This document shows, one piece after another, positions 1-17,964 of a stretch of 29,406 nucleotides of DNA (position 1 is the first letter of the stretch; the number at the start of each line of letters is the position of its first letter). A model generated the notes under the pieces. The model did no database searches, was not told the origin of the DNA, and saw only the letters and a program-made list of their open reading frames with translations. Made by a program: the position numbers and the translations under genes. The DNA comes from a virus, in UHGV virus genome UHGV-0125383; one strand, written 5' to 3'.

Positions 1-784
1 AGAGAATGTGCTGGAGAGTACCAAATGCACGAGTCTTGTCCGGATCAAGCGTGGAAGCGTACGCCAGAAAACCTTTCGGCTTCTTCGTCCCGTTCCCGCT
101 GGTAAAGGCGATTTCTTCCTGCTCTGCAAACTCAATTGCCAGTTCGCTGTTGATCCAGTCCTCAACGTTGAAGAAGGCATCATCCAACATCGTCTGGGTT
201 GCCTGGGGATTACCGTAGATTTCACCCATGAATGGCTCAATCTGACCGAGTTTGGAGGCATCCGTATCCGGACGAGCATCCGTTTCACCAACCCAGCCAG
301 ACGCAGTACCGCCAAGGTTAACCAGTTTTTTATAGTTTGCGCCGCCAACGGTGATGGTCGTGGCTTCCTGGCGCATCACCACTTCATCTTTCAGAAGATC
401 CAGGATAGTGCGATCAAGTTCTTCCGGTACGGCATAACCACCGTCTTCATCGACGCCGACCTGTAGGGCTTTACGCTCCAGATCGCGAAGGCCATCATCT
501 TTACCCTTACGCATAAAATCGAGAAATGCCGTTTTGTGTTCACTTGCGGCCTTGCTCTGAGGTCCACCAGCAGGACGTTTTACCTGCTTCAGTTCTTCTT
601 CCAGAGCAGATTTAAGTTCGTCCAGTTCAGATAACTTACCGTTTAAGGTTTCAACCTCACCGGCAAGTTTGCCCTTTTCTTGCTCAACAGCCTCCAGCCG
701 CTTATCGTTCTTTTCTTTGAACGCATCAAACTTAGCCTGTAGCTCCTGCGCAACCTGTTCTACATCTTTTTGTTCTACTGCCAT
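1..784 (-). CDS. Major capsid protein, HK97 family, N-terminal part (gene continues beyond window start)
   Basis: Minus-strand frame open from ATG at 782-784 to position 1 with no stop (hand translation begins MAVEQKDVEQVAQELQAKFDAF..., a coiled-coil N-terminus, then ...GYAVPEELDRTILDLL...). It lies directly downstream of the prohead protease as in HK97-like head modules. Not in the ORF track because it has no stop inside the window. Confidence 0.75.
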   Translation of the reverse strand, partial: MAVEQKDVEQVAQELQAKFDAFKEKNDKRLEAVEQEKGKLAGEVETLNGKLSELDELKSALEEELKQVKRPAGGPQSKAASEHKTAFLDFMRKGKDDGLRDLERKALQVGVDEDGGYAVPEELDRTILDLLKDEVVMRQEATTITVGGANYKKLVNLGGTASGWVGETDARPDTDASKLGQIEPFMGEIYGNPQATQTMLDDAFFNVEDWINSELAIEFAEQEEIAFTSGNGTKKPKGFLAYASTLDPDKTRAFGTLQHIL

Positions 785-7304: not shown

Positions 7305-8357
7305 TTATGTCTTATTCAGTTCGCGGATTTCCTCCACAGTCTGAATAAATCGCTCTGTTTCCAGCTCAACGCCGATTGCCCGTCGCCCAAGCGCCATAGC
7401 CGCTTTAATGGTTGAACCCGATCCCATGAAGAAATCAGCCACAACATCACCCGGCCTGCTGCTGGCGTTGATGATCTGCTGCAACATGTCTGCTGGCTTT
7501 TCGCATGGGTGTTTTCCGGGGTAAAACTGAACCGGTTTATGCGTCCAGACATCGGTGAAAGGAACAGAGACTGAAACAGAAAAGAACCGCCGGAGAGACC
7601 TATACTCTTCCAGCAATTCTGAATACTTCCGGTTCAACGAATGCCACGTGGCCACCAGCTGGTGGTGTGGTGTGTCGAGCTCATTGTTTCGATGCTTATC
7701 GAATGCAACCTGGGTGAACAGTTCCTGCAGTTTCTGGTAATCCGCTTCGCCTGGCAGTTGCCATTGAGAGGCTCCGAACCAGTGCGAGACCATGTTTTTC
7801 TTCCCGGTCGCATCGGCGATCTGCTTAGAGGAAACCCCAAGCGATTCACGCGCGTCACGGAAATACGAAATCAGCGGCGTCAGCACATGCTGTTTGAGCT
7901 CGTTACTTTTCTCTGCGTATCCATCACTCTTGGGCTTATACGGGCCCTGGTAATGTTCAGCGAAAAGAATGCGCTCAGTCGCCGGGAAATATGAACGCAG
8001 GCTTTCTTTGTTGCAGCCATTCCAGCGACCGGAAGGTTTTGCCCAGATGATGTGATTAAGGACACTGAACCGCTCCCGCATCATGATTTCAATATCAGAC
8101 GCAAGGCGATGCCCACAGAACAGATAAAGGCTACCGGCGGGTTTCAGAACGCGCCAGAACTCAGCCAGGTATCCATCAAGCCAGCGTAAAAAATCCTCGT
8201 CCCCTTTCCACTGGTTGTCCCATCCTTCAGGTTTCACCCTGAAGTAAGGTGGATCCGTAACGATAAGGTCAATGGAGTTATCAGGGAGAGAAGCGATGTA
8301 ATGCAGGGAGTCAGCGTTGATTAACTCAACACTGTTTATTTTTACAGTATTTTTCAT
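7305..8357 (-). CDS. DNA N6-adenine methyltransferase (beta-class: DPPY motif N-terminal, FxGxG C-terminal), probably orphan
   Basis: 350-aa ORF with VTDPPYF near the N-terminus and FFMGSGST near the C-terminus. No adjacent restriction endonuclease ORF. First gene of the late operon, between the late terminator and the holin. Confidence 0.8.
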
Positions 8358-8594
8358 AGATCAGTAAGCGTAACTCTGATAAGCTCACTATGCTTTTGCG
8401 CTAAAGCAGTGGGCCCTGGTTAGCTTGTGACCTGAAAGCATGAGCTGATGGCTGGCCGGGTGCTACAACACCCACCAGCCGCCCATTTTCACAGCAGATA
8501 GCCCAGGCTGTCGCTGGGCCAGTGATTGATCTTCGACGATATGACAGGGGTATTGATGCAATGCACCTCGCGAATACCCCTGTCGTATCGCCGG

Positions 8595-8620
8595 AAAGCA
8601 AAAGCCCCGACTGGCGGGGC
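8595..8620 (-). terminator. Rho-independent terminator (tR'-like) in the late-operon leader
   Basis: On the minus strand the RNA would read GCCCCG-CCAGU-CGGGGC followed by UUUUGCUUU: a perfect 6-bp GC stem, 5-nt loop and U-tract, just downstream of the putative late promoter. Confidence 0.7.
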
Positions 8621-8686
8621 TCTCGTCATAATCAAATTGTCGCTTCTCATCGCTGCCATCGTGGCGCAGCTCTGCCAAGCATAAAC

Positions 8687-8716
8687 ACATTAGCTAACTT
8701 TCTGGCCCGTTTTCAA
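8687..8716 (-). promoter_or_regulatory. Putative late promoter (PR'-like) downstream of the Q gene
   Basis: Minus-strand TTGAAA (complement of 8711-8716) and TAATGT (complement of 8687-8692) with about 18-bp spacing, between the Q stop and the terminator. Hexamers were picked by eye. Confidence 0.3.
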
Positions 8717-8764
8717 CTCTGTCAGTTAAAAATAGCACTAATAGCTAAAATATTCCTTTTGCGA

Positions 8765-9364
8765 CTATTCGGATAATAGTTTTCGTGAGGACAGAAAAAC
8801 CTTTGCTCTGAAGATTTCCAGGCACCAGCGCACTCGTTTTCTGGCCTCTCCATCAGTCAGCCAGGGCGCTATAACCTGCAATTCTCTGGTGATGTCTGAG
8901 ATTTTTTTCCTTGTGGTGTAATACTGGCATCCAACCACATAAACAGGATCGTTCAGGTCGAAAGCCTGAAGGACAGACTCCTCGACGAACTCAACATCAT
9001 CACTATTGATGGCCTCATCAATTATACTGACCTGCGGCTCGGGCCAGAGAATTAAGCGGGCCCGCCGTAACGCCTGCTCACCACGGAATCCCTCATCCCT
9101 CGCTTGATTCAACGCGACGGTAAAACGCTCGAGCGCTTTATCAGACCAGTTCCTCCCTCTGATTACGTTCCAGCATGAATGTCCGCATGGTTTTCTGGGA
9201 GCTACTCCACCGCGAACGCTTTCACCCCATACAGCGAGAAGAGATTTGATCCATCCAGACTGGATATCGGTCAGGAGCATGCTTTTCCCCAGCCAGCTTT
9301 TGCGCGGCGCTATCGCTGCCTTTTCCAGGGCTGCCCGATGCGAACGTTTTTGACGAGGTGTCAT
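8765..9364 (-). CDS. Putative late-gene antiterminator Q
   Basis: 199-aa ORF immediately upstream of the promoter/terminator pair that precedes the lysis genes, the position Q occupies in lambdoid phages. Family resemblance is from memory only; the call is mainly by synteny. Confidence 0.55.
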   Translation of the reverse strand: MTPRQKRSHRAALEKAAIAPRKSWLGKSMLLTDIQSGWIKSLLAVWGESVRGGVAPRKPCGHSCWNVIRGRNWSDKALERFTVALNQARDEGFRGEQALRRARLILWPEPQVSIIDEAINSDDVEFVEESVLQAFDLNDPVYVVGCQYYTTRKKISDITRELQVIAPWLTDGEARKRVRWCLEIFRAKVFLSSRKLLSE

Positions 9365-9378
9365 TATTTTTTCTCCAC

Positions 9379-10374
9379 TTATGCCAGCACACCAATTGCA
9401 AGCGCACGATCGATAAAACGAAATATCAGCTCCAGCTGCGAGCCGTATTTCTCTTCAAATGCCACGGTATCCGCATGTAGCTCGTCGTGATGCTTTCTGC
9501 ACAAAGGCAACACCCAGAGGTCATGCGCTTTTGTCCCCATACCGCCCTGACCGTGGCCTATCAGGTGGTGCGGATCATCTGCCTGCTTACCACAGCAGGC
9601 GCACGGCTGGGCCTTCACCCAGCGCGTGTATTTCTCATTTTCCCAGCGTCTCCGCTTCGGGCGTAGCATGAAGCTTTCCGGCGATTCCGGATCAATCCTG
9701 AGTGTCAGTACCTTCTTCGCCTTCTCCTGCACAATGCTGGTGGCTGGTAACGAGGGCACAATATCGCTTTCTCGCATGACGGATTTCGGCTCTTCACCCG
9801 GTAGTCGCAGCGCTTTATGTGCAACGCTTTCCGGGATCACGTCACCCAGATCATTTCTGACCATCCACCAGCACAACTCCGGGAGAGTCAGAACATGCGA
9901 CTCTGGAAAACCTAAATCCGTACGGATGACTGACATGATCCAGGATACCAGGTTTTTGCTGGCTATACCTGCAAGCTGTTCCGTGTATTGTCCAGCGAGG
10001 GTGTGGTCGCAGTGCCAGCACAACCGGATGCTCCCTGGCTTATGCCGCATTATCGTAAAATTCTTGTCGTGCCATGTTGAATGGGGCCACTGGCATTCGA
10101 ACTTTTTGTTTAACCAGCCATCAAGCGAAGACAATCCACCAGCGCGTTGAATAACGCGCTGATTTTCAAATATCCCACTCATTACCGGATCGTCTGCCAG
10201 TGGCTGAACCGCTGCCGGCACATAACCAGTTTCGTAAGAGGCCATGCTTTCAGGTTCTGGCTCGAGTAAAACCCGACCGCGCATGAATAGCGGCATCAGT
10301 TCAGCGCCAGGACGGAAAAGCACAACCCCCATTCGATGGGCTATTTCAGGTGTTAGCAGTGCTCTCAACATCAC
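9379..10374 (-). CDS. DUF968-family phage protein (YdfU-like) with C-terminal HNH-like Cys/His motif
   Basis: 331-aa ORF. C-terminal ...CACCGKQADDPHHLIGHGQGGMGTKAHDLWVLPLCRKHHDELH resembles the conserved DUF968 region of lambdoid prophage proteins (memory). Confidence 0.6.
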   Translation of the reverse strand: MMLRALLTPEIAHRMGVVLFRPGAELMPLFMRGRVLLEPEPESMASYETGYVPAAVQPLADDPVMSGIFENQRVIQRAGGLSSLDGWLNKKFECQWPHSTWHDKNFTIMRHKPGSIRLCWHCDHTLAGQYTEQLAGIASKNLVSWIMSVIRTDLGFPESHVLTLPELCWWMVRNDLGDVIPESVAHKALRLPGEEPKSVMRESDIVPSLPATSIVQEKAKKVLTLRIDPESPESFMLRPKRRRWENEKYTRWVKAQPCACCGKQADDPHHLIGHGQGGMGTKAHDLWVLPLCRKHHDELHADTVAFEEKYGSQLELIFRFIDRALAIGVLA

Positions 10375-10643
10375 ACTCCACTTCTAGCAAACGTCGATTT
10401 TCGGAACTCTTTTTTTATTTTCTTGTTCCCACACAAGTGGAGGTAGAGAAGTGACAGTTCTCGGGATAAGTAACACTCACCGTCGATATACCTCACGGCA
10501 TCAGGATGTAAATCAATCCAATCTTTTGTTTCTTTAAGGGCAAGAAACTGCTCCTGACTGAGGCTGAAACCGCCATGCTGTGTTTTTTTAGCCTTATGAA
10601 TTGATGATGTGCCATAAATCCCTGGTTTTGACTGATTACCCAT
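10371..10643 (-). CDS. Hypothetical phage protein (90 aa)
   Basis: Track ORF; overlaps neighbouring genes by a few nt on both sides (coupled arrangement). No family recognised. Confidence 0.5.
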   Translation of the reverse strand: MGNQSKPGIYGTSSIHKAKKTQHGGFSLSQEQFLALKETKDWIDLHPDAVRYIDGECYLSRELSLLYLHLCGNKKIKKEFRKSTFARSGV

Positions 10644-11526
10644 GAACAGCCCCTCCAGCCAACTCTTTATCGTGGGTAAACTTACCGTTCCAGGTCACCT
10701 TCATCGGAAGCTTTCCTTTCAGGTAATTTTTGTACAGCCAGACAGCACCATCCCTGAGCAGAACAGGTTGATAGGTGGTAAAGCTGACTGCAGAGTTTGG
10801 TGAGACTTTCGTGCTTTTCTCAGTAAGGTATTTATCGCGAGCGTAAGAACGGACACGCCATTGAGCGCTGCGCCCTTCCGGATTGTCATCATAGAGCCAG
10901 TTTGCAGAGACCAGCCAGGCACTAATCTTACTGGTATTAACACCGTTGAGTCGTTTGCAGAACTGTACCGGAGAAAGCCCGTCGGTGAAGAGACTCTCGA
11001 GGTGTTCAATGTATTCAGCCTGCTGGTGAGTAATAGCCTCAGCCTGTTGCTTTGCTTCCATGGCATCAGCCCATGCACGGGCAAGCTTTATTGGGTCTGA
11101 GATATCGGGTAACGTAACGCCATAAACTTCGCGCATGCCAAAGTAATGATCTTCGAGTTGCTCAAAGAAGTCCCACGCCTGCTCTGTCTCAAGCATTTTC
11201 GCATGGTGCGATGCGCCGCGTTCAGTCCAGAGATATAAGCTGCGAGTTTTCGGGGAGATTTGCACATAGCTTAAAGAGTTGCGCAAATTTTCGACTTCTT
11301 CTCCCTCAATCCTGAAGTAGTGTTTACCCTCAATAAACCGGCTTTTGTTGCGATTAAAGTTATTCGTGATGTTTTGCGCGGTGGTGCTGTACCCAGCGGC
11401 AAGTGAATCAGTGGTTACCACTCGCTGATTGCGATAAGTAATCACCGGGACTGCGGAATTATTAACAGAAACGACAGATGTGGCGCTACCTTTGGGCGTA
11501 GCAAGGCCCATAACCTGGTTAGTCAT
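10636..11526 (-). CDS. ORF6N/Rha-type phage regulatory protein (antirepressor-like)
   Basis: 296-aa ORF; N-terminal region (VITYRNQRVVTTDSLAAGYSTTAQNITNNFNRNKSRFIEGKHYF...) resembles ORF6N/Rha-family domains of phage antirepressors (memory). Confidence 0.55.
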   Translation of the reverse strand: MTNQVMGLATPKGSATSVVSVNNSAVPVITYRNQRVVTTDSLAAGYSTTAQNITNNFNRNKSRFIEGKHYFRIEGEEVENLRNSLSYVQISPKTRSLYLWTERGASHHAKMLETEQAWDFFEQLEDHYFGMREVYGVTLPDISDPIKLARAWADAMEAKQQAEAITHQQAEYIEHLESLFTDGLSPVQFCKRLNGVNTSKISAWLVSANWLYDDNPEGRSAQWRVRSYARDKYLTEKSTKVSPNSAVSFTTYQPVLLRDGAVWLYKNYLKGKLPMKVTWNGKFTHDKELAGGAVHG

Positions 11527-11614
11527 ATTTTCTCCACTGTTTTAGTGCGAACGGGACTGCACTCCCGTTTCGCTTGCACCGGGTAACCATACCCTGAATT
11601 ACCCATGTTTTGCT

Positions 11615-12001
11615 CTAGCAAGATGATATTTTTTCCTCAAATTTCTTGATCGAGATCTCTACTCTTCCCCCTTTCACTACTGGCCCCCACTCCACCAGCA
11701 TTCTTTTTACCTGGCTGTCGTCTTCCCAGATCCCCGCATGGGTAAGAGCGTCGAACAGCGCTTTGTTGTAGTTATCCAGATCCCGGATCCGGTTGTCCGG
11801 CGGGAACAGGATTATTTCAACAGCCGCCGGTGACGATGACGGCTTCGGGAGCATGCGCAGTTGTTCAATGATTGCCGCACATGCTGACGACTGGAACTGG
11901 CGACCTTTGGCACTTATCAGGTGACGGCCGGCAAGCGGCCCCTTGTTCGGGGCGCGCCAGTACGTGTTCACACTTGGAGGAAACGGCAGCACAAGTTTCA
12001 T
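11615..12001 (-). CDS. rusA: RusA-family Holliday junction resolvase
   Basis: 128-aa ORF with the characteristic RusA motifs LPFPPSVNTYW, RDLDNYNKALFDALT and GIWEDDSQV. Confidence 0.9.
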   Translation of the reverse strand: MKLVLPFPPSVNTYWRAPNKGPLAGRHLISAKGRQFQSSACAAIIEQLRMLPKPSSSPAAVEIILFPPDNRIRDLDNYNKALFDALTHAGIWEDDSQVKRMLVEWGPVVKGGRVEISIKKFEEKISSC

Positions 12002-12318
12002 ACCCGGATCCCCTTGTTTTTGAGATAGGCGATTGCGCGGTCCTTCGCACCATCTTCACCATTCACAAGCGCATGCAGCAGGGAATCTGCATCAGCAGCG
12101 TTCTCCGGATCGTTGATGGCAATTCCCCGCGAGACACCACGCGTCAGGGTGATAGCCCCTTTCCTCTCCAGCGCGCGCAGATGATCCGCAGCGGCATTTG
12201 GCGAACTGCATCCCAGCAGTCCCGAAAGTTCTGTATTGGTTGGAGGATAGCCATGCTCGCGTTGAAAGCTGATCAGGGTATCCAGTACATGCTGCTGGCG
12301 AGCCGTTAAGTTCATCAT
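11998..12318 (-). CDS. LexA N-terminal DNA-binding domain protein (winged HTH only, no S24 peptidase domain)
   Basis: Track ORF 11998..12345. Probable start is the ATG at 12316-12318 (MMNLTARQQHVLDTL...), preceded by AAGGAGG and overlapping the C5-methyltransferase stop (ATGA). LTARQQHVLD...GYPPTNTELSGLLGCSSPNAAADHLRALERKGAI parallels the LexA DNA-binding domain (memory). The protein ends about 105 aa without a cleavage domain. Confidence 0.7.
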   Translation of the reverse strand: MMNLTARQQHVLDTLISFQREHGYPPTNTELSGLLGCSSPNAAADHLRALERKGAITLTRGVSRGIAINDPENAADADSLLHALVNGEDGAKDRAIAYLKNKGIRV

Positions 12319-14297
12319 GCTGCCTGTTCCTCCTTGCTCACACATAGCTCTGGCAGATTGGCGCGCACCAGCGCTTCAGCGAACGGTGGCGGGACTGCAT
12401 TGCCGCAGCGCGCCACTTGCTTATCTTTGGCGTACCGCTTGCCGCGATAATCCTGATCGATGATGTACCAGTCAGGGAAGCCCTGTGCGCGGTAAAGCTC
12501 GTGCGGCTGAAGCATACGCATACCGATATCGACGATGCGGTACGTTATCCCATCGATGTCGACCATCCCGGTGCATTCCTCGCCGCAGTATTCACGTAGG
12601 AACGCCAGCGCCTGCTGTGCGCGGTGTTCGTCGTAGTCTTCGACCGCCAGAGTGGTTTTGACTTCCCCGACATGCAAGCCGCCAGCCGTAACTGTCGGCA
12701 TTGGTTCACTCGTGGGCTGACCATCGCGACAGGTGCCGCGCAGTTTTACCAGGTGAGAAGCAACCACTGCATGGTGATCGACCGTCGTCACCGAGTGGAC
12801 TGGTTCATCCAGCCCGACGCCTGGCCCCGTATAGTTGCCGCCGTAATGCTTCGCCAGAAATGCGCTGGCCACGGCGAACTTGTTACCACCAGCGGTTACC
12901 GTCCCCAGCGGCTTTTCAAGCTGCAACACACGCGGGTCCTGCCCCGGCCTTTCGCCGTAACCCATCTGGATCAACGTTGGCGTCACCAGCTGTGAATGAC
13001 CGCCGCCGCCCGCCGTAATCGTCGCACTCGGCTCGTCTGCCCGGTGACCGATGCTGGCCCCAAACTGGCGAGCGATAACCGGCGCAACCAGACAGGCACG
13101 AGACTGTTTCAGGATGGTGTGAGCGGGTTTATCCAGCGGGCGCGGCTTTGCCTGGTACTCACTGCCACCATTACCAGCCAGGAACGGTGTAAGCGCGGCC
13201 TCAACGATGCCGAGGGCATGACCATTCCCGCCCGGGCGCCGTGACGTGCCGGCGGTGATTGTCGGGACTGGTTGTGTGACATCCTGCCCTGTCGCGCCTG
13301 TTCTGAACTTCGTCAGGTGCGGCACGGCAACCGCGTAACCATGCGTTTTGGTGATTGTCTGCAGCGGTTCTTCCAGCGACTGGCCCCGGAAGCAGTCGTA
13401 ATGCGTTTTGGTGCTGGTATGGTTGCACTTCACGATAAATGGCGACGCGCTGTCGATAACGAAGCGCTGAATACCGCGCGCAATGCGCTTGAGCGTATTC
13501 ACTGCCAGGGGCTTTTTGCGGTCGAAGATCGACAGCGCGGGAATGGTCCAGTCGATACACTCCGCAGCGGTGCGCCACGGCAACAGCTTGCCAGCCTGAA
13601 CCGCCGGTAACTTCGGATCCCCGTGTGTTGGCTCCGGCCACACTATCGGTTTCCCGTCACAGCGAATAACCATGAAGAAGCGTTTTCTGATCGTCGGCGC
13701 ACCGTAATCACAGGCGCGCAGTTCGCGATACTCAACGACATAACCCAGACCTTTTACCAGTCTGGCGGCGTCCTCGCTGTCGAGAGGAATACCCAGGAAT
13801 TCACAGCACTCCACCAGCGCCGGATGATCGGGAGAAATCCCCGTCGTTAGCATAGCGACGAAAGCCTGGAAGTTTTCGCCAACACGTTCAGGATCCGGGC
13901 GCATTTCACCAGCAAGAAGCGGCCCCCACGTTCTGAACTCTTCGACGTTCTCCAGCTTCATAACACGAGGCTTAACATCAAGCCCCCAGCGCAGTGTCAC
14001 CCAGGCCAGACCGCGTATCGCTTTTTCTACGGGCTTCGCACCTTTGGCTTTCGAAAAATGACGACAATCAGGACTGAACCATGCCAGGGCAACCGGTAAC
14101 CCACCCGTCGCCGCGCGCGGATCCACTTCAAATACTGATTCGCAGTAATGGAGCGTGTCCGGGTGGTTCGTCTTGTGCATCGCGATCGCGTTCTCGTCAT
14201 GGTTGATCGCGATATCAACGCTGCGACCAATCGCCATTTCAATACCTGTTGACGCGCCACCACCACCAGCAAAGTTATCAACGATAATCTCACGCAT
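12315..14297 (-). CDS. DNA cytosine-5 methyltransferase with expanded, internally repeated variable region
   Basis: 660-aa ORF with motif I FAGGGG, catalytic PC motif (FSPDCRHFS), ENV (KLENVEEF) and C-terminal GNAVPPP. The central region carries five similar modules (PTITAGTSRRPGG, SATITAGGGGHSQ, GTVTAGGNKFAV, HSVTTVDHHAV, MPTVTAGGLHVGE). Confidence 0.85.
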   Translation of the reverse strand: MREIIVDNFAGGGGASTGIEMAIGRSVDIAINHDENAIAMHKTNHPDTLHYCESVFEVDPRAATGGLPVALAWFSPDCRHFSKAKGAKPVEKAIRGLAWVTLRWGLDVKPRVMKLENVEEFRTWGPLLAGEMRPDPERVGENFQAFVAMLTTGISPDHPALVECCEFLGIPLDSEDAARLVKGLGYVVEYRELRACDYGAPTIRKRFFMVIRCDGKPIVWPEPTHGDPKLPAVQAGKLLPWRTAAECIDWTIPALSIFDRKKPLAVNTLKRIARGIQRFVIDSASPFIVKCNHTSTKTHYDCFRGQSLEEPLQTITKTHGYAVAVPHLTKFRTGATGQDVTQPVPTITAGTSRRPGGNGHALGIVEAALTPFLAGNGGSEYQAKPRPLDKPAHTILKQSRACLVAPVIARQFGASIGHRADEPSATITAGGGGHSQLVTPTLIQMGYGERPGQDPRVLQLEKPLGTVTAGGNKFAVASAFLAKHYGGNYTGPGVGLDEPVHSVTTVDHHAVVASHLVKLRGTCRDGQPTSEPMPTVTAGGLHVGEVKTTLAVEDYDEHRAQQALAFLREYCGEECTGMVDIDGITYRIVDIGMRMLQPHELYRAQGFPDWYIIDQDYRGKRYAKDKQVARCGNAVPPPFAEALVRANLPELCVSKEEQAA

Positions 14298-15168
14298 GGG
14301 TCACCCCCTGCATGCTGCTGGCAAGACCAGAGGCAACGGCAATGATCTCGCTGGTGGGCATACGTTCAAGCCATAGCTGATTGATATTGCCTTTCAGCTT
14401 GTTCTGCTGTGACTCAGTCAGGGCGTCAACGCCATCCACCTGGTTAAACACCAGACCAACCTCGAGAGGCCAGATACGCGACTCAACTTCTGGCAATACC
14501 AGCGGCGCAGTTGGCTGTACTGCTTCTTCCTGCCGGGCCTTACCAGCGGCAAATGTGACCAGCGACATAAACGCCTTCCCTTTTTCCTCCAGATCGGCAC
14601 GGCTGATGTAGCTGAAACGCTCACCGCGCCAGGACTTGTCGAACACGGCGATTGCACCAGCAAAAAATGCGCTGGTGGGCTTTTGCTTATCGTCCAAAGG
14701 AACAAACCACACAGGGAGATCGAAGCCAATGCGACCGCGAATAAACATGATGTGATCGGCATCTTCCGGCCACCAAGTTTCGCTCGGCGCGGCTTTTATC
14801 AGGAATACATAGCGACCACCCTTTTCGCGCTGGGCTGCTGCGTAATTCATAATGTGTGTCATGCCAGTGATCGCCTGCTTCTCGTGGTACTGCGAACGGC
14901 TATACGGTGGGTTGCCATAACCTGCGCCGCCAAGTTCTGCCAGACGTTCAGACCAGTCCTGCGTCAGCGCATTATCTTCGGCGGTGTACCAGACCGGACA
15001 CTTCGCGTTATCGTCGTCAGCAAACAGATCCAGAACCAACGGCCCGAATATTGCGTTGATCCCCCAAAACAACAGATCCGGAGTACGCCATTGATCGCCA
15101 ACCTCTTTCAGTTCGTGGGCTGGTTTACTGCGCAGTTCCGCCAGCGCCTGGCAATATTTGTTTATCAT
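14290..15168 (-). CDS. Phage Dam-type DNA N6-adenine methyltransferase
   Basis: 292-aa ORF with NPPY motif (GYGNPPYSRSQ); start overlaps the replication-gene stop (TAATG) and its stop region overlaps the C5-methyltransferase start by 8 nt. Confidence 0.8.
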   Translation of the reverse strand: MINKYCQALAELRSKPAHELKEVGDQWRTPDLLFWGINAIFGPLVLDLFADDDNAKCPVWYTAEDNALTQDWSERLAELGGAGYGNPPYSRSQYHEKQAITGMTHIMNYAAAQREKGGRYVFLIKAAPSETWWPEDADHIMFIRGRIGFDLPVWFVPLDDKQKPTSAFFAGAIAVFDKSWRGERFSYISRADLEEKGKAFMSLVTFAAGKARQEEAVQPTAPLVLPEVESRIWPLEVGLVFNQVDGVDALTESQQNKLKGNINQLWLERMPTSEIIAVASGLASSMQGVTHA

Positions 15169-16100
15169 TATCCCCTGAACCCCTTTGGAATTTTGGTATC
15201 AACCGGACCGAACTTCATTGGGTCATGTTTCTTTTCGCCCCAGCATTCACGTGGTGGACGCCCCTTCTTGTCCCAGCGGATCCCGCTTTGCAGATACCCC
15301 TCAAATTTTTTCGGGCCAAACAGTGTTTCAGGGCGCATGTACTGGTACTGCTCATCGTTACCGTTCCAGTGTTCGTGTTTCAGGTCGATCACCAGTTGCA
15401 TATCAGCGACGCTGTAACCTTCACGCAGACGTGCACGAATGTTTTCCAGCGAGGTTTTAGATTTCTGATACCGGGAGCCACTGACCTGGTTTAAATGGGT
15501 TAAAACCAGAATGGCGTTATCGGTGATCACAACCTCAGGGTCTGGTTGCGACGCAACCGGACAAGAAGGTTTTATGATCTGTTTGTGGTGATCTGAGTAA
15601 TGATCTGTATAGAGAATAGGTTCCGCGACTTCGCGGTTATGGTTCCGCGATTCTGCGTTTTCGGTTCCGTGATTCTGCGGAATAGGTTCCGTGACTTCGC
15701 GTTTCCCGTTCCGCGATTCTGCGGAATCCAGTGTTGTAGGGAATAAAGCCTCGATTAATGCCTCACCGTCGATACGGTAGTGCGTCTTTTTCGTACCGTT
15801 TACCTGCTTTTGCGCTTTATCAACAATTCCAGGTAACCAGCGAGTGCAAATCTTGTTTACCAGTCGCTGTACCTGGTCTTCACTGACTCCACGAATTTCC
15901 GCAGCTAACTCGCTGTGCTCTTTGTAGAACCAGCCATCCTTCAGGTCTGATTTCCCGGACCAGAAGACCAACTGGTTGAGAACTGCCCCCAAAGCATGCG
16001 CCTGCTGATCACCGGAAAAAAAATCAAGGTAAGGGACCGGGATTGTTATTGCGTTGCGCTGGCCCGACAGCGACTGAACGATTTCAAATATCTGGCTCAT
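15168..16100 (-). CDS. Replication initiation protein (lambda O-like role) with iterons inside the coding sequence
   Basis: 310-aa ORF. Contains five 17-bp iterons that translate to a repeated linker (ESRNGKREVTEPI / ESRNHNREVAEPI). C-terminal MRPETLFGPKKFEGYL resembles the conserved phage C-terminal domain seen in replication proteins (memory). Confidence 0.7.
   Translation of the reverse strand: MSQIFEIVQSLSGQRNAITIPVPYLDFFSGDQQAHALGAVLNQLVFWSGKSDLKDGWFYKEHSELAAEIRGVSEDQVQRLVNKICTRWLPGIVDKAQKQVNGTKKTHYRIDGEALIEALFPTTLDSAESRNGKREVTEPIPQNHGTENAESRNHNREVAEPILYTDHYSDHHKQIIKPSCPVASQPDPEVVITDNAILVLTHLNQVSGSRYQKSKTSLENIRARLREGYSVADMQLVIDLKHEHWNGNDEQYQYMRPETLFGPKKFEGYLQSGIRWDKKGRPPRECWGEKKHDPMKFGPVDTKIPKGFRG
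15619..15723. repeat. Putative replication origin: five iterons at exact 22-bp spacing within the replication gene
   Basis: GGTTCCGCGACTTCGCG (15619), GGTTCCGCGATTCTGCG (15641), GGTTCCGTGATTCTGCG (15663), GGTTCCGTGACTTCGCG (15685), CGTTCCGCGATTCTGCG (15707); each has internal dyad symmetry (CCGCGA / TCGCGG). Confidence 0.75.
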
Positions 16101-16239
16101 GATCGTCCTTTATCTCAGTAAACTTGCGCTGGAACTGTTCGAGCGGACTGAAGCATTCATGCTCATAGCCTTTGCGTAGGTAGATAACGCGGACGGGAAA
16201 ACCGTAGTGGTCTTTGAACCAGCGGTTAAGTTCTCGCAT
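16084..16239 (-). CDS. Hypothetical small protein (51 aa); alternative to the 98-aa track ORF 16110..16406 in another frame
   Basis: Hand-translated MRELNRWFKDHYGFPVRVIYLRKGYEHECFSPLEQFQRKFTEIKDDHEPDI; ATG at 16237-16239 preceded by AGGGGAA. Composition is protein-like, whereas the 98-aa frame is Arg/Ser-rich; however the 98-aa frame has better positional coupling to both neighbours. Unresolved. Confidence 0.3.
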   Translation of the reverse strand: MRELNRWFKDHYGFPVRVIYLRKGYEHECFSPLEQFQRKFTEIKDDHEPDI

Positions 16240-16402
16240 AAGGATTCCCCTCTACGGCGCCATACCCCCACAATTGCCATCGCCCGACTGTGGTTACAGG
16301 GAACCCAGCGGCCTGATACCATGCGCTCATACCGAAACATGATGTAACCCCGAACAGGGTATGCACGTAGTTGCGGTATGCGGTTCTTTACCGTTAAACT
16401 GT

Positions 16403-16957
16403 TCATGCGTTAGTTTCTCCACTGATACGACACGCCACGGCGCCCGGAGCTGCACACTCGCGGGCGTCACTCTTTTTCGGCGCACAAAAGACGCGAAAAA
16501 GCAGCGTTAAGTGTTCCTGCCATTTAGCCATCACCTGATAGCTGTTCTCTTCGATCTGCGCTCGTTCCTTCTCATCAATCACACCGTCGGCAGTTGCCTT
16601 GCGAACGTACTGTGAATGCTTGCCAATCCACTCGACTGACTCCATCAGGCGCTGGTTGATATCGCCGTTCTCAATCTCTTCAACATCAGCCAAAGGCACA
16701 AAAACACCGTTGGAGTGACGTGCGATAGCATTCGCAATATGGTTTGAGCCACCAGCTCTCTGTAACACCATTGCCCAGCCAAGCGGGAAGATCTGATCAC
16801 CATCAGCCCGAAGGCGGTTAAACAGTGCATTTTCAGTAACGCCCAACCACTCAGCAGCCTCGGCATAACCGCCAGGCAATTCGGTGATCGTCTTTTTGAT
16901 TGCGCCCACCAGCCAGGATGGTTGCTTATCAACTTTCCATTCCGGTTCATTTCCCAC
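16403..16957 (-). CDS. Phage early regulatory protein with HTH (CII-like / YdaT-like position)
   Basis: 184-aa ORF immediately downstream of the cro-like gene; contains an HTH-like segment (GYAEAAEWLGVTENALFNRLRADG). Family assignment is tentative. Confidence 0.45.
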   Translation of the reverse strand: MGNEPEWKVDKQPSWLVGAIKKTITELPGGYAEAAEWLGVTENALFNRLRADGDQIFPLGWAMVLQRAGGSNHIANAIARHSNGVFVPLADVEEIENGDINQRLMESVEWIGKHSQYVRKATADGVIDEKERAQIEENSYQVMAKWQEHLTLLFRVFCAPKKSDARECAAPGAVACRISGETNA

Positions 16958-17000
16958 GGCTTGTTCCTCTCTTCTGTGGTTATAAAAAACGAAATATTTG

Positions 17001-17201
17001 TTACTGTTTTGGATAAATGTCAGGACGAAGATCGGATTTGCTGATAATTCCAGAAGTGGTCTCTTCCAGCTTTTTAGCTAAGGAAAAACCGGCTTTTTTG
17101 TAACCATTAAAAACTAAGCGCAGGTAGCCAGGTGTTGACCCAACGCTTCCGGCTAAATCACCTTGTTGCTCTTTGGTTAAAGAGTCCCAATACTCTTTCA
17201 T
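17001..17201 (-). CDS. Cro-like HTH regulator (YdaS-like)
   Basis: Track ORF 17001..17273 is over-extended; the ATG at 17199-17201 is preceded by a perfect AGGAGG SD and gives a 66-aa product MKEYWDSLTKEQQGDLAGSVGSTPGYLRLVFNGYKKAGFSLAKKLEETTSGIISKSDLRPDIYPKQ. Divergent from the repressor gene across the operator region. Confidence 0.8.
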   Translation of the reverse strand: MKEYWDSLTKEQQGDLAGSVGSTPGYLRLVFNGYKKAGFSLAKKLEETTSGIISKSDLRPDIYPKQ

Positions 17202-17205
17202 GATA

Positions 17206-17283
17206 TGTACCTCCTGTGTACATATTACACGAAAGAAATGAACCATCAAGGTACTTGTACCACTGAGGTACACATTGTTTAAT
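17206..17283. promoter_or_regulatory. Immunity-region operators and divergent promoters (PR-like leftward, PRM-like rightward)
   Basis: Two 17-bp palindromes TGTACCTCCTGTGTACA (17206-17222) and TGTACCACTGAGGTACA (17256-17272), plus a weaker TGAACCATCAAGGTACT (17239-17255). Minus-strand TTGATG (17244-17249) and TAATAT (17222-17227) fit a PR-like promoter; plus-strand TTGTAC (17255-17260) and TTTAAT (17278-17283) fit a PRM-like promoter placing the cI ATG at the transcript start (leaderless). Confidence 0.65.
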
Positions 17284-17289
17284 TTACTG

Positions 17290-17964
17290 ATGAAAACTAT
17301 CCAGGAAATCAGGCGGTTAAACGCCAGAAAATTGAGAGATGGTGTTGGCGGTAATACTTACTTTGCTAACATGATCGATCGCGAGCCAACCCAGACCAGC
17401 AGGTTCATGGGAGAAGGTGCCACCAAAGGTATTGGTGACACTATGGCCAGGCACATCGAAAAATGTTTCGATCTTCCTCAGGGGTGGTTAGATACAGAAC
17501 ATCAAACGACTAATGTTGCAAAAGAACCTGATGTTTCCGACACTAATAGAAACATTACTATGGTTCCCGTTATATCCTGGGTGCAGGCAGGAGCATGGAC
17601 CGATTCTGGTTATGCTGAGGTAGATTTGAATAGTGTTGAAACCTATCCTTGTCCCGTGCCATGCGGGCCTATGACATATATCCTGCGTGTCATTGGAGAC
17701 TCAATGATCGACGAATATCGTCCTGGCGATATGATTTTTGTCGATCCTGAGGTCGCTGCAACGCATGGTGATGATGTCATAGCCCTAATGCATGATTCTG
17801 GTGAGACAACATTTAAAAGACTTATAGAAGACAGTGGTGCAAAATTTCTCAAAGCGTTGAATCCTAACTGGCCTGAGCCATACGTCAAGATTAATGGTAA
17901 TTGCTCAATAATTGGTACTGTAGTTTTCTCAGGAAAGCCCAGAAGATACAGACATAAACCTTAA
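17290..17964 (+). CDS. CI-type prophage repressor (HTH plus S24 LexA-like autopeptidase domain)
   Basis: Track ORF 17275..17964 begins at a TTG; the first ATG is 17290 (MKTIQEIRRLNARKL...). C-terminal domain has the S24 Ser motif (GDSM) and a downstream Lys (TFKRL). Confidence 0.9.
   Translation: MKTIQEIRRLNARKLRDGVGGNTYFANMIDREPTQTSRFMGEGATKGIGDTMARHIEKCFDLPQGWLDTEHQTTNVAKEPDVSDTNRNITMVPVISWVQAGAWTDSGYAEVDLNSVETYPCPVPCGPMTYILRVIGDSMIDEYRPGDMIFVDPEVAATHGDDVIALMHDSGETTFKRLIEDSGAKFLKALNPNWPEPYVKINGNCSIIGTVVFSGKPRRYRHKP

Follow-up and report, generated by a model that had tools for sequence, protein, structure and literature searches.

What does a DNA-binding domain of LexA do in a prophage when the self-cleaving part of LexA is missing? 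The question is raised by a gene (11998..12318, minus strand, stop codon included) in the UHGV virus genome UHGV-0125383, whose 29,406 nucleotides form the window, that is, the whole stretch of DNA analyzed here. The gene encodes a protein of 106 residues, MMNLTARQQHVLDTLISFQREHGYPPTNTELSGLLGCSSPNAAADHLRALERKGAITLTRGVSRGIAINDPENAADADSLLHALVNGEDGAKDRAIAYLKNKGIRV, which is identical to NCBI WP_457975593.1, matches both PF01726 and PHROG 362, and is referred to here as the LexA-like protein. It is situated between the genes of a C5 cytosine DNA methyltransferase (12315..14297, minus strand, 660 residues, Pfam PF00145) and of RusA, a Holliday-junction resolvase (11615..12001, minus strand, 128 residues; Pfam PF05866 positions 1–124 of 124, with the acidic motifs DLDN and EDD present). 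Public databases already have the gene called and named correctly, and it belongs to a common, annotated phage family. What is new here is the finding of natural fusions with rusA and evidence, from a comparison with genuine LexAs, that the canonical SOS box still suits the recognition helix. We tentatively interpret the LexA-like protein as a RecA-insensitive, dimeric LexA-type DNA binder that would act on SOS-type operators in lytic growth.

Residues 1–69 of the LexA-like protein (12112..12318, minus strand) form a LexA-type winged helix-turn-helix (wHTH). Residues 1–65 match the Pfam profile LexA_DNA_bind (PF01726) over its full length (positions 1–65 of 65, E 3e-19, 69 bits against a cut-off of 23.7), which is the outcome of the profile search that the initial annotation had set as a check. 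In the phmmer search against LexA chains in the PDB (E 1e-14 to 1e-15), residues 2–72 pair without gaps with residues 2–72 of E. coli LexA, and the alignments end at about residues 72–79. The AlphaFold2 (AF2) model has a predicted local distance difference test (pLDDT) value of 87.6 and consists of the LexA wHTH (helices 6–22, 28–35, and 40–53; strands 56–58 and 66–68) and two extra helices (71–85 and 91–101). Foldseek superimposes the first 66–70 residues onto 1jhh, 3jso, and 1lea with root mean square deviations of 0.7–1.4 Å, narrowing to 0.7–1.2 Å in the match to 3jso and 1jhh, and 48–50% identity, and finds no whole-chain match for the model in the PDB.

The absence of the other half of LexA should be noted. 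No Pfam match to Peptidase_S24 (PF00717) is found in the protein, whose chain stops at residue 106, and its translation contains no Ala-Gly dipeptide past residue 69. Only positions 1–90 of the 203 in the lexA equivalog profile TIGR00498 are covered, and the score (64.5 bits) is below the cut-off (110.95). RecA-stimulated self-cleavage is excluded because both the S24 autopeptidase and the Ala-Gly site are absent. The LexA-like protein is a paralogue of the LexA N-terminal domain without the S24 domain and without the cleavage site, and the initial proposal of a LexA wHTH that cannot be cleaved with the help of RecA is confirmed by the profile, the structural model, and the translation alike.

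The open reading frame (ORF) extends from the ATG at 12318..12316 to the TGA at 12000..11998 on the minus strand (MMNLTARQQ...KNKGIRV). Its ATG overlaps the TGA of the C5 methyltransferase gene (12317..12315) to give an ATGA, and the ATG of rusA (12001..11999) overlaps its own TGA to give a second ATGA at the 3' end. A Shine-Dalgarno-like AAGGAGG (12329..12335, minus strand), read inside the end of the C5 methyltransferase gene, is located 10 nt before the ATG. The start, the AAGGAGG, and both overlaps read as they had been described. A start at 12345, which would give 115 residues, was rejected: it has no Shine-Dalgarno sequence and would create a 31-nt overlap with the methyltransferase gene, the homologues all begin with M-x-x-L-T, and NCBI has the 106-residue form. 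The overlaps suggest translational coupling of the gene. Overlaps of 4 nt are the general style of the early-right operon.

The recognition helix (residues 39–52, SPNAAADHLRALER; 12163..12204, minus strand) was assigned by alignment and by the contact residues of LexA, in which S39, N41, A42, E44, and E45 contact DNA (PMC3091678). Conservation of the helix was counted over 148 unique family sequences. No variation occurs at S39, N41, A42, A43, L47, and R48. Nearly all sequences have D or E at position 45, whereas A, N, T, or V is found at position 44 and H, M, V, L, or Q at position 46. The helix in the window, SPNAAADHLRAL, is the commonest type (53 of the 148) and differs from that of E. coli LexA in having A for E at position 44 and D for E at position 45.

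Both of these replacements are also found in full-length LexAs that bear a cleavage site, which counts in favor of recognition of the SOS box. Full-length LexAs with a VAAGSP cleavage region and the helix S[VHP]NAAVDHLKAL were found by a genome scan in Acidiferrobacterales, Chromatiales, and Betaproteobacteria. In the approximately 120 nt upstream of these lexA genes themselves, a strict CTGT-N8-ACAG is present in 16 of 20 cases and CTG-N10-CAG in 19 of 20, against a background of 0.009 per kb in the same loci. Since lexA is autoregulated and these LexAs carry boxes at their own genes, a small hydrophobic residue at position 44 together with Asp at position 45 is compatible with the canonical box. 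Judging from this comparison, the LexA-like protein in the window probably still reads CTGT, namely SOS-type half-sites, and its binding to SOS-type boxes is plausible.

The part beyond the wHTH is specific to the family. Residues 70–106 (12001..12111, minus strand) form a hinge and a hairpin of two helices (71–85 and 91–101) according to the AF2 model and the alignment. Residues L80, L84, A91, A95, L99, and G103 in this tail are invariant in an alignment of 29 sequences. In the split family, the ratio of nonsynonymous to synonymous diversity (pN/pS) is 0.32 for the DNA-binding domain, 0.51 for the tail, and 0.65 for the hinge, values of which only the order is meaningful with synonymous sites near saturation. 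Searched against 1.84 billion representative proteins, a profile made from the tail alone found no other architectures: its only matches were fragments of this family and a single spurious repeat protein. The tail is thus not shared with other proteins as a module. The last codons of the gene, AAC AAG GGG ATC CGG GTA TGA, place AAGGGG 8–9 nt before the ATG of rusA. This AAGGGG probably doubles as the Shine-Dalgarno sequence of rusA, and part of the conservation at the end of the tail may serve the ribosome-binding site of rusA.

The clearest hint at function is given by natural fusions of the two genes. The overlap with rusA was already pointed out in the initial annotation, where the fusions, the strongest functional clue, were missed. 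In-frame wHTH::RusA fusion ORFs are present in five loci related to the window (L029:4001-4609, L030:527-1135, L031:4001-4627, L032:4001-4609, and L046:4001-4627) and in the proteins P0046–P0069. The fusion proteins in these five loci (202–208 residues) consist of wHTH residues 1–70, approximately 80% identical to those in the window, a linker of approximately 10 residues, and full-length RusA. The natural fusions lack the helical tail. In a large protein collection, 24 clusters at 90% identity combine PF01726 and PF05866 in 202–212 residues. The sources of these clusters are Klebsiella, Kluyvera, and metagenomes, and their label in NCBI is either 'hypothetical protein' or 'RusA family crossover junction endodeoxyribonuclease'. 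P0069 keeps the junction and the wHTH while its RusA part is much diverged (68% identity to the query over the whole protein, compared with 86–91% for the other fusions). A further fusion of 233 residues (L284) is frameshift-like, occurs on a single contig, and was given no weight.

In the fusion lineage, the ratio of nonsynonymous to synonymous substitution rates (dN/dS) is 0.05 for the wHTH (dS 0.73) and 0.09 for RusA, and the linker evolves fast. Both domains are under strong purifying selection, which means that the wHTH works when it is tethered to the resolvase. The AF2 model of a natural fusion shows a confident wHTH, a disordered linker (pLDDT below 50), and RusA at moderate confidence, with a predicted template modeling score (pTM) of 0.44. 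No interface between the wHTH and RusA is found in this model, and the fusion is predicted to be two domains on a flexible tether. Joining the wHTH covalently to RusA is tolerated even though its own tail is lost.

The expression of the gene should be considered together with these features. The gene is situated in a long minus-strand early-right (nin-type) operon of a lambdoid prophage, and this prophage is SOS-inducible. A consensus scan of the minus strand from 8200 to 17400 found no sigma-70-like site, and there is no intergenic space or promoter-like site next to the gene. In the absence of a promoter-like site of its own, the gene would most simply be expressed from the early-right transcript after derepression.

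We propose the following scheme on the basis of these observations. The LexA-like protein would be made only when the prophage is derepressed, at the time when the host LexA is being destroyed. It would bind LexA-type CTGT half-sites as a dimer, and the C-terminal hairpin would provide the dimerization that the S24 domain provides in LexA. RusA is a dimer. In the natural fusions, the dimeric RusA domain on its flexible linker would take over the dimerization, and the hairpin could have been lost because the RusA dimer replaces its role. The layout of the fusions, in which a DNA-binding domain is followed by a linker and a dimeric domain, mirrors that of LexA and is counted in favor of this scheme. 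The outcome would be a repressor that is insensitive to RecA and re-occupies SOS-type operators during lytic growth.

Several observations weigh against this scheme. The initial annotation had also called for a scan of the phage for LexA boxes, and its result is unfavorable: SOS-like boxes are not enriched in the window at any half-site spacing. CTGT-N8-ACAG with up to one mismatch occurs 14 times where 9.25 are expected, and exact CTGT-Nx-ACAG with x from 0 to 20 is never enriched. No set of phage operators for the LexA-like protein was identified in the window, which has only one perfect box. Positions 44–46 of the recognition helix differ by subclade (for example, SPNAATDMLRKL, SPNAATEVLRSL, and SPNAAALQLRAL), which is unexpected if all members read one enterobacterial SOS box. 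Dimerization by the tail is purely our supposition, and the model is a monomer. The near-constant adjacency of rusA, which is not nearby in only one of approximately 136 loci, is not predicted by a free-standing repressor. Finally, a full-text literature search found no functional study of PHROG 362 or of the LexA-like family, and the gene is not mentioned in the papers on serotype-converting phages that this search covered.

The window's single perfect match to CTGT-N8-ACAG, TACTGTAAAAATAAACAGTG, is located at 8330-8349 (read on the minus strand) and lies within codons 3–9 of an N6_N4 methylase ORF (7305..8357, minus strand) in the late operon. This box is close to the SOS-box consensus and is found at the start of the late operon, just downstream of a Q-like gene and a terminator-like hairpin. 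The same box opens orf48 of SfV (L243, 34172-34187), which is not independent evidence because the surrounding DNA is nearly identical. Among the relatives, a perfect SOS box close to the LexA-like gene is found in only 9 of 162 loci, and the boxes of close relatives are not independent either because they all lie in the same nearly identical late methylase gene. In most other phages with the LexA-like gene, the 4 kb downstream contain no such box. Strong SOS boxes, such as TACTGTTTTTACATACAGTA and TACTGTATATGCGTACAGTA, are scattered in related prophages (L001:548-563, L052:173-188, L070:7412-7427, L147:2944-2959, and L010:86-101), and the first of these, in the Stx2k phage OQ243220, is inside a CI-like gene (locus positions 82-774, minus strand).

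The main rival explanation starts from the constancy of rusA. In this explanation, the LexA-like protein is an accessory subunit of RusA whose wHTH serves as a duplex-DNA arm that tethers, targets, or modulates the resolvase on branched phage DNA, with no role in transcription; it would be docked via the hairpin or be covalently fused. We compared a first set of 80 loci anchored on the LexA-like gene (79 from IMG/VR and one GenBank phage), a second clade of 56 loci that partly overlaps the first set, and a set of 80 loci anchored on rusA (79–100% identity to the window RusA). In the first set, rusA is located directly downstream with the same 4-nt overlap in 74 loci, is fused to the LexA-like gene in 5, and is 630 nt away in 1. 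In the second clade, it is adjacent in 37 loci, is found 580–770 nt downstream behind an insertion in 17, and is joined in a frameshift-like fusion in 1. The one remaining locus is the only case overall, among the approximately 136, in which rusA is missing within 2.5 kb.

The reverse relation is looser. In the rusA-anchored set, the LexA-like gene is directly upstream in 62 loci, is nearby in 2, and is missing in 16. In those 16, a methyltransferase gene abuts rusA in 8 and an unrelated ORF of 72–75 residues takes the place in 7. This small ORF (MKNLSTEHENAVRDVARQC..., PHROG 303; L102:388-615, L122:2283-2501, L124:2277-2504, and four more) occupies the slot of the LexA-like gene and overlaps the rusA start by 4 nt. 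Such an asymmetry is as expected of an accessory, and the accessory role explains it better than the repressor does. The partner is also restricted to one RusA subfamily: GenBank phages have 417 RusA records, of which 85 show at least 60% identity to the window RusA, and the LexA-like gene is found in 62 records. Classical RusA phages (approximately 43% identity) are annotated without a LexA-like partner. The fusions agree with an accessory role in that both domains have dN/dS below 0.1 across a form represented by 24 clusters, the junction is kept in P0069 despite the divergence of RusA, and the tail is dispensable once the link is covalent.

However, RusA alone is a complete resolvase, and 20% of the close RusA relatives manage without the partner. 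The invariant residues in the helix are those with which LexA reads bases, beyond the needs of a non-specific DNA clamp, and the modeled fusion has no fixed domain interface. The 17 loci with a gene inserted between the LexA-like gene and rusA, and the restriction of the tail to this one domain, are also unfavorable to this role. Furthermore, the methyltransferase gene upstream is equally constant, being present in 131 of approximately 134 classifiable loci, so the synteny may be historical. We consider the accessory role somewhat unlikely; if it is true, a minimal bacterial resolvase would have acquired a winged-helix arm in the form of the LexA-like protein.

In a further explanation, which has a characterized precedent, the LexA-like protein would be a transcription factor specific to the phage that represses or activates a phage promoter through a non-SOS operator of its own. 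GIL01 gp6 is a truncated LexA homologue, limited to the LexA DNA-binding domain, that recognizes a distinct palindrome and is an activator of the late promoter P3; its K38 is essential for binding its site (PMC6182141). The hhalign comparison of the LexA-like family with gp6 gives 96.4% probability and 29% identity over 62 columns, a match at the level of the domain. PHROG 362 is labeled 'transcriptional repressor', and the subclade differences at helix positions 44–46 would be expected if the operators co-evolved with the phages. On the other side, no conserved candidate operator was found, and the core of the gp6 palindrome, CACANNTGTG (full target GaCACAnnTGTGaC, at a late promoter), does not occur in the 29.4-kb window. 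The gene has neither intergenic space nor a promoter-like site around it, and a Q-type antiterminator already serves the late genes. The residue equivalent to K38 of gp6 is N41, as in LexA, and the helix in the window is almost identical to those of genuine LexAs that use CTGT-N8-ACAG. This explanation is unlikely in our view.

A broader scheme that unites the neighbors is quite doubtful, though worth stating. The methyltransferase, the LexA-domain protein, and RusA would be one unit managing the DNA-damage signaling of the host in lytic growth. After commitment of the prophage, the RecA-proof repressor would re-silence the host SOS regulon, including LexA-controlled competitors and toxins, and its tail would dock on the RusA dimer. 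The fusions would be chimeric repressor-resolvases in which a Holliday-junction nuclease replaces S24 as the dimerizer.

The methyltransferase genes upstream need to be described in this connection, since the initial annotation connected the LexA-like protein specifically with the C5 enzyme. In the first set, a DNA methyltransferase gene is located upstream in 76 of 80 loci (PF05869 Dam in 43, C5 in 20, D12-class Dam or a Dcm-D12 fusion in 10, and N6_N4 in 3); the other four have one replication-like gene and three that are unclassified or at a contig end. In the second clade, the count is 55 of 56. The PF05869 Dam gene is directly upstream of the LexA-like gene in most relatives. The closest relatives with 97% identity (L008–L013 and L016–L018) have Dam directly upstream and no C5 methyltransferase, whereas relatives with 97–99% identity (L003–L007) have the C5 methyltransferase as in the window. 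An E. coli prophage and IMG/VR prophages with the same C5 methyltransferase do not have the LexA-like gene, and the former has no rusA either. The C5 methyltransferase is an interchangeable cassette, which some prophages have between Dam and the LexA-like gene and other, near-identical ones lack. The position of the LexA-like gene after it is a cassette junction and not a functional pairing, and the coupling between the two is incidental. The specific link to the C5 enzyme, drawn from the window alone, does not survive this comparison.

Two profile matches touch the junctions of the LexA-like gene. In PHROG 29443 (273 positions), the N terminus of the C5 methyltransferase matches positions 1–152 and the helix region of the LexA-like protein matches positions 145–184, a pattern that suggests truncated methyltransferase::LexA-domain fusions or merged gene calls. 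The match of the window RusA to PHROG 34 (RusA) begins only at profile position 75, an offset that may reflect fused members.

Regulation of the methyltransferase module by the LexA-like protein, also put forward initially, or a partnership with it, or a buffering of the SOS induction caused by the phage methyltransferase, is very improbable: the constancy of the upstream gene, the usual retention of the start/stop overlap, and the fact that foreign methylases can induce SOS in E. coli speak for it, but methyltransferases of four families (PF05869 Dam, C5, D12-class Dam, and N6_N4) make a specific protein-protein or operator relation unlikely, the slot is filled also in relatives without the LexA-like gene, the C5 methyltransferase comes and goes between near-identical prophages, and the LexA-like gene lies downstream in one operon with no promoter between them and no promoter-like site or intergenic operator nearby.

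The surroundings of the gene in the window are those of a lambdoid early-right operon. The order is cro-like, CII-like, replication protein, Dam (N6-adenine DNA methyltransferase, PF05869; 14290..15168, minus strand), C5 methyltransferase, LexA-like protein, rusA, ORF6N/KilAC, a 90-residue ORF, DUF968/HNH, and the Q-like antiterminator. The N6_N4 methylase and then the lysis genes are located beyond the Q-like gene. An S24-type CI repressor gene is divergent (17275..17964, plus strand) in the gene scan of the window. Three DNA methyltransferases of different families are found in one prophage: C5 and PF05869 Dam belong to the early operon and N6_N4 to the late one. The 660-residue C5 enzyme carries large insertions, because its PF00145 match falls in three separated stretches. 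Between the Q-like gene and the late methylase, there is a 29-nt inverted repeat (8526-8601, 83% complementary, with an 18-nt loop). Beside it, a G+C-rich hairpin followed by T's (approximately 8590-8625, minus strand) resembles a late-leader terminator (tR'-like). No match was obtained when the window was scanned for Rfam families and tRNAs.

The family is widespread in enterobacterial phages. In GenBank phages, tblastn finds the LexA-like gene at approximately 47% identity, and the carriers include SfV (orf42), SfII, SfIV, the cdtI phage, mEp460, and many Stx2 and Stx2c phages. They annotate the gene under different names, among them 'LexA DNA binding domain protein' and 'repressor, lexA family'. 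The cluster of the SfV orf42 type contains 2,527 member sequences, and one member is found on 528 contigs. The exact protein in the window is named 'LexA family protein' in Citrobacter amalonaticus and occurs on 20 contigs. Tail-bearing members are confined to Enterobacteriaceae in a scan of one genome per species. A full-length family member with 42% identity on a 534-bp contig (L169, NZ_JBHSON010000324.1) of an Actinomadura rugatobispora assembly is probably contamination. PADLOC finds no defense-system match for the LexA-like protein or RusA.

The family is carried by Stx2-converting, cdt-converting, and Shigella serotype-converting phages, all of which rely on the SOS response for their induction. 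If the repressor proposed above is real, a RecA-proof LexA domain that is made while the host LexA is destroyed could alter the duration or strength of SOS gene expression. It could also alter the firing of co-resident LexA-controlled prophages or colicins, and the amount of toxin.

Comparison with known systems places the LexA-like protein as follows. It matches positions 1–105 of the 106 in PHROG 362 (E 1.6e-41) as a full-length member and shares with this family, and with the NCBI 'LexA family protein', the length, the tail motif including the hairpin residues, and the slot between a methyltransferase gene and rusA. It differs in being only approximately 47% identical to the members in E. 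coli and Shigella phages and in having the C5 methyltransferase cassette upstream.

GIL01 gp6 is likewise a phage-encoded LexA DNA-binding domain without the autocleavage domain. However, gp6 is a tail-less protein of 66 residues, whereas the window protein has an extra tail of 37 residues and, in the hhalign alignment, has the LexA-type N41 in place of K38. BLASTP gives no alignment between the two proteins up to E 100. In addition, gp6 belongs to a Tectiviridae phage of Bacillus and has no link to rusA. The two are independent captures, with gp6 taken from a Gram-positive LexA.

The DNA-binding domain of E. coli LexA (1LEA, 1JHH, and 3JSO) has the same fold and the same LTxRQQ, SxNAA, and SRGI motifs. 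In contrast to LexA, the LexA-like protein has neither the hinge cleavage site nor the S24 peptidase/dimerization domain, and bears the helical tail instead, together with the replacements E44A and E45D. A counterpart in the host is LexA(1-84), the autocleavage fragment, which is the N-terminal domain without the dimerization domain and keeps residual operator binding. Isolated N-terminal fragments of LexA retain weak specific binding to operators, and dimerization strengthens the binding. The fragment and the phage protein share the logic of an uncleavable DNA-binding remnant. However, the host fragment is quickly cleared by ClpXP, whereas the phage LexA-like protein, presumably a stable gene product, has a conserved C-terminal hairpin of its own.

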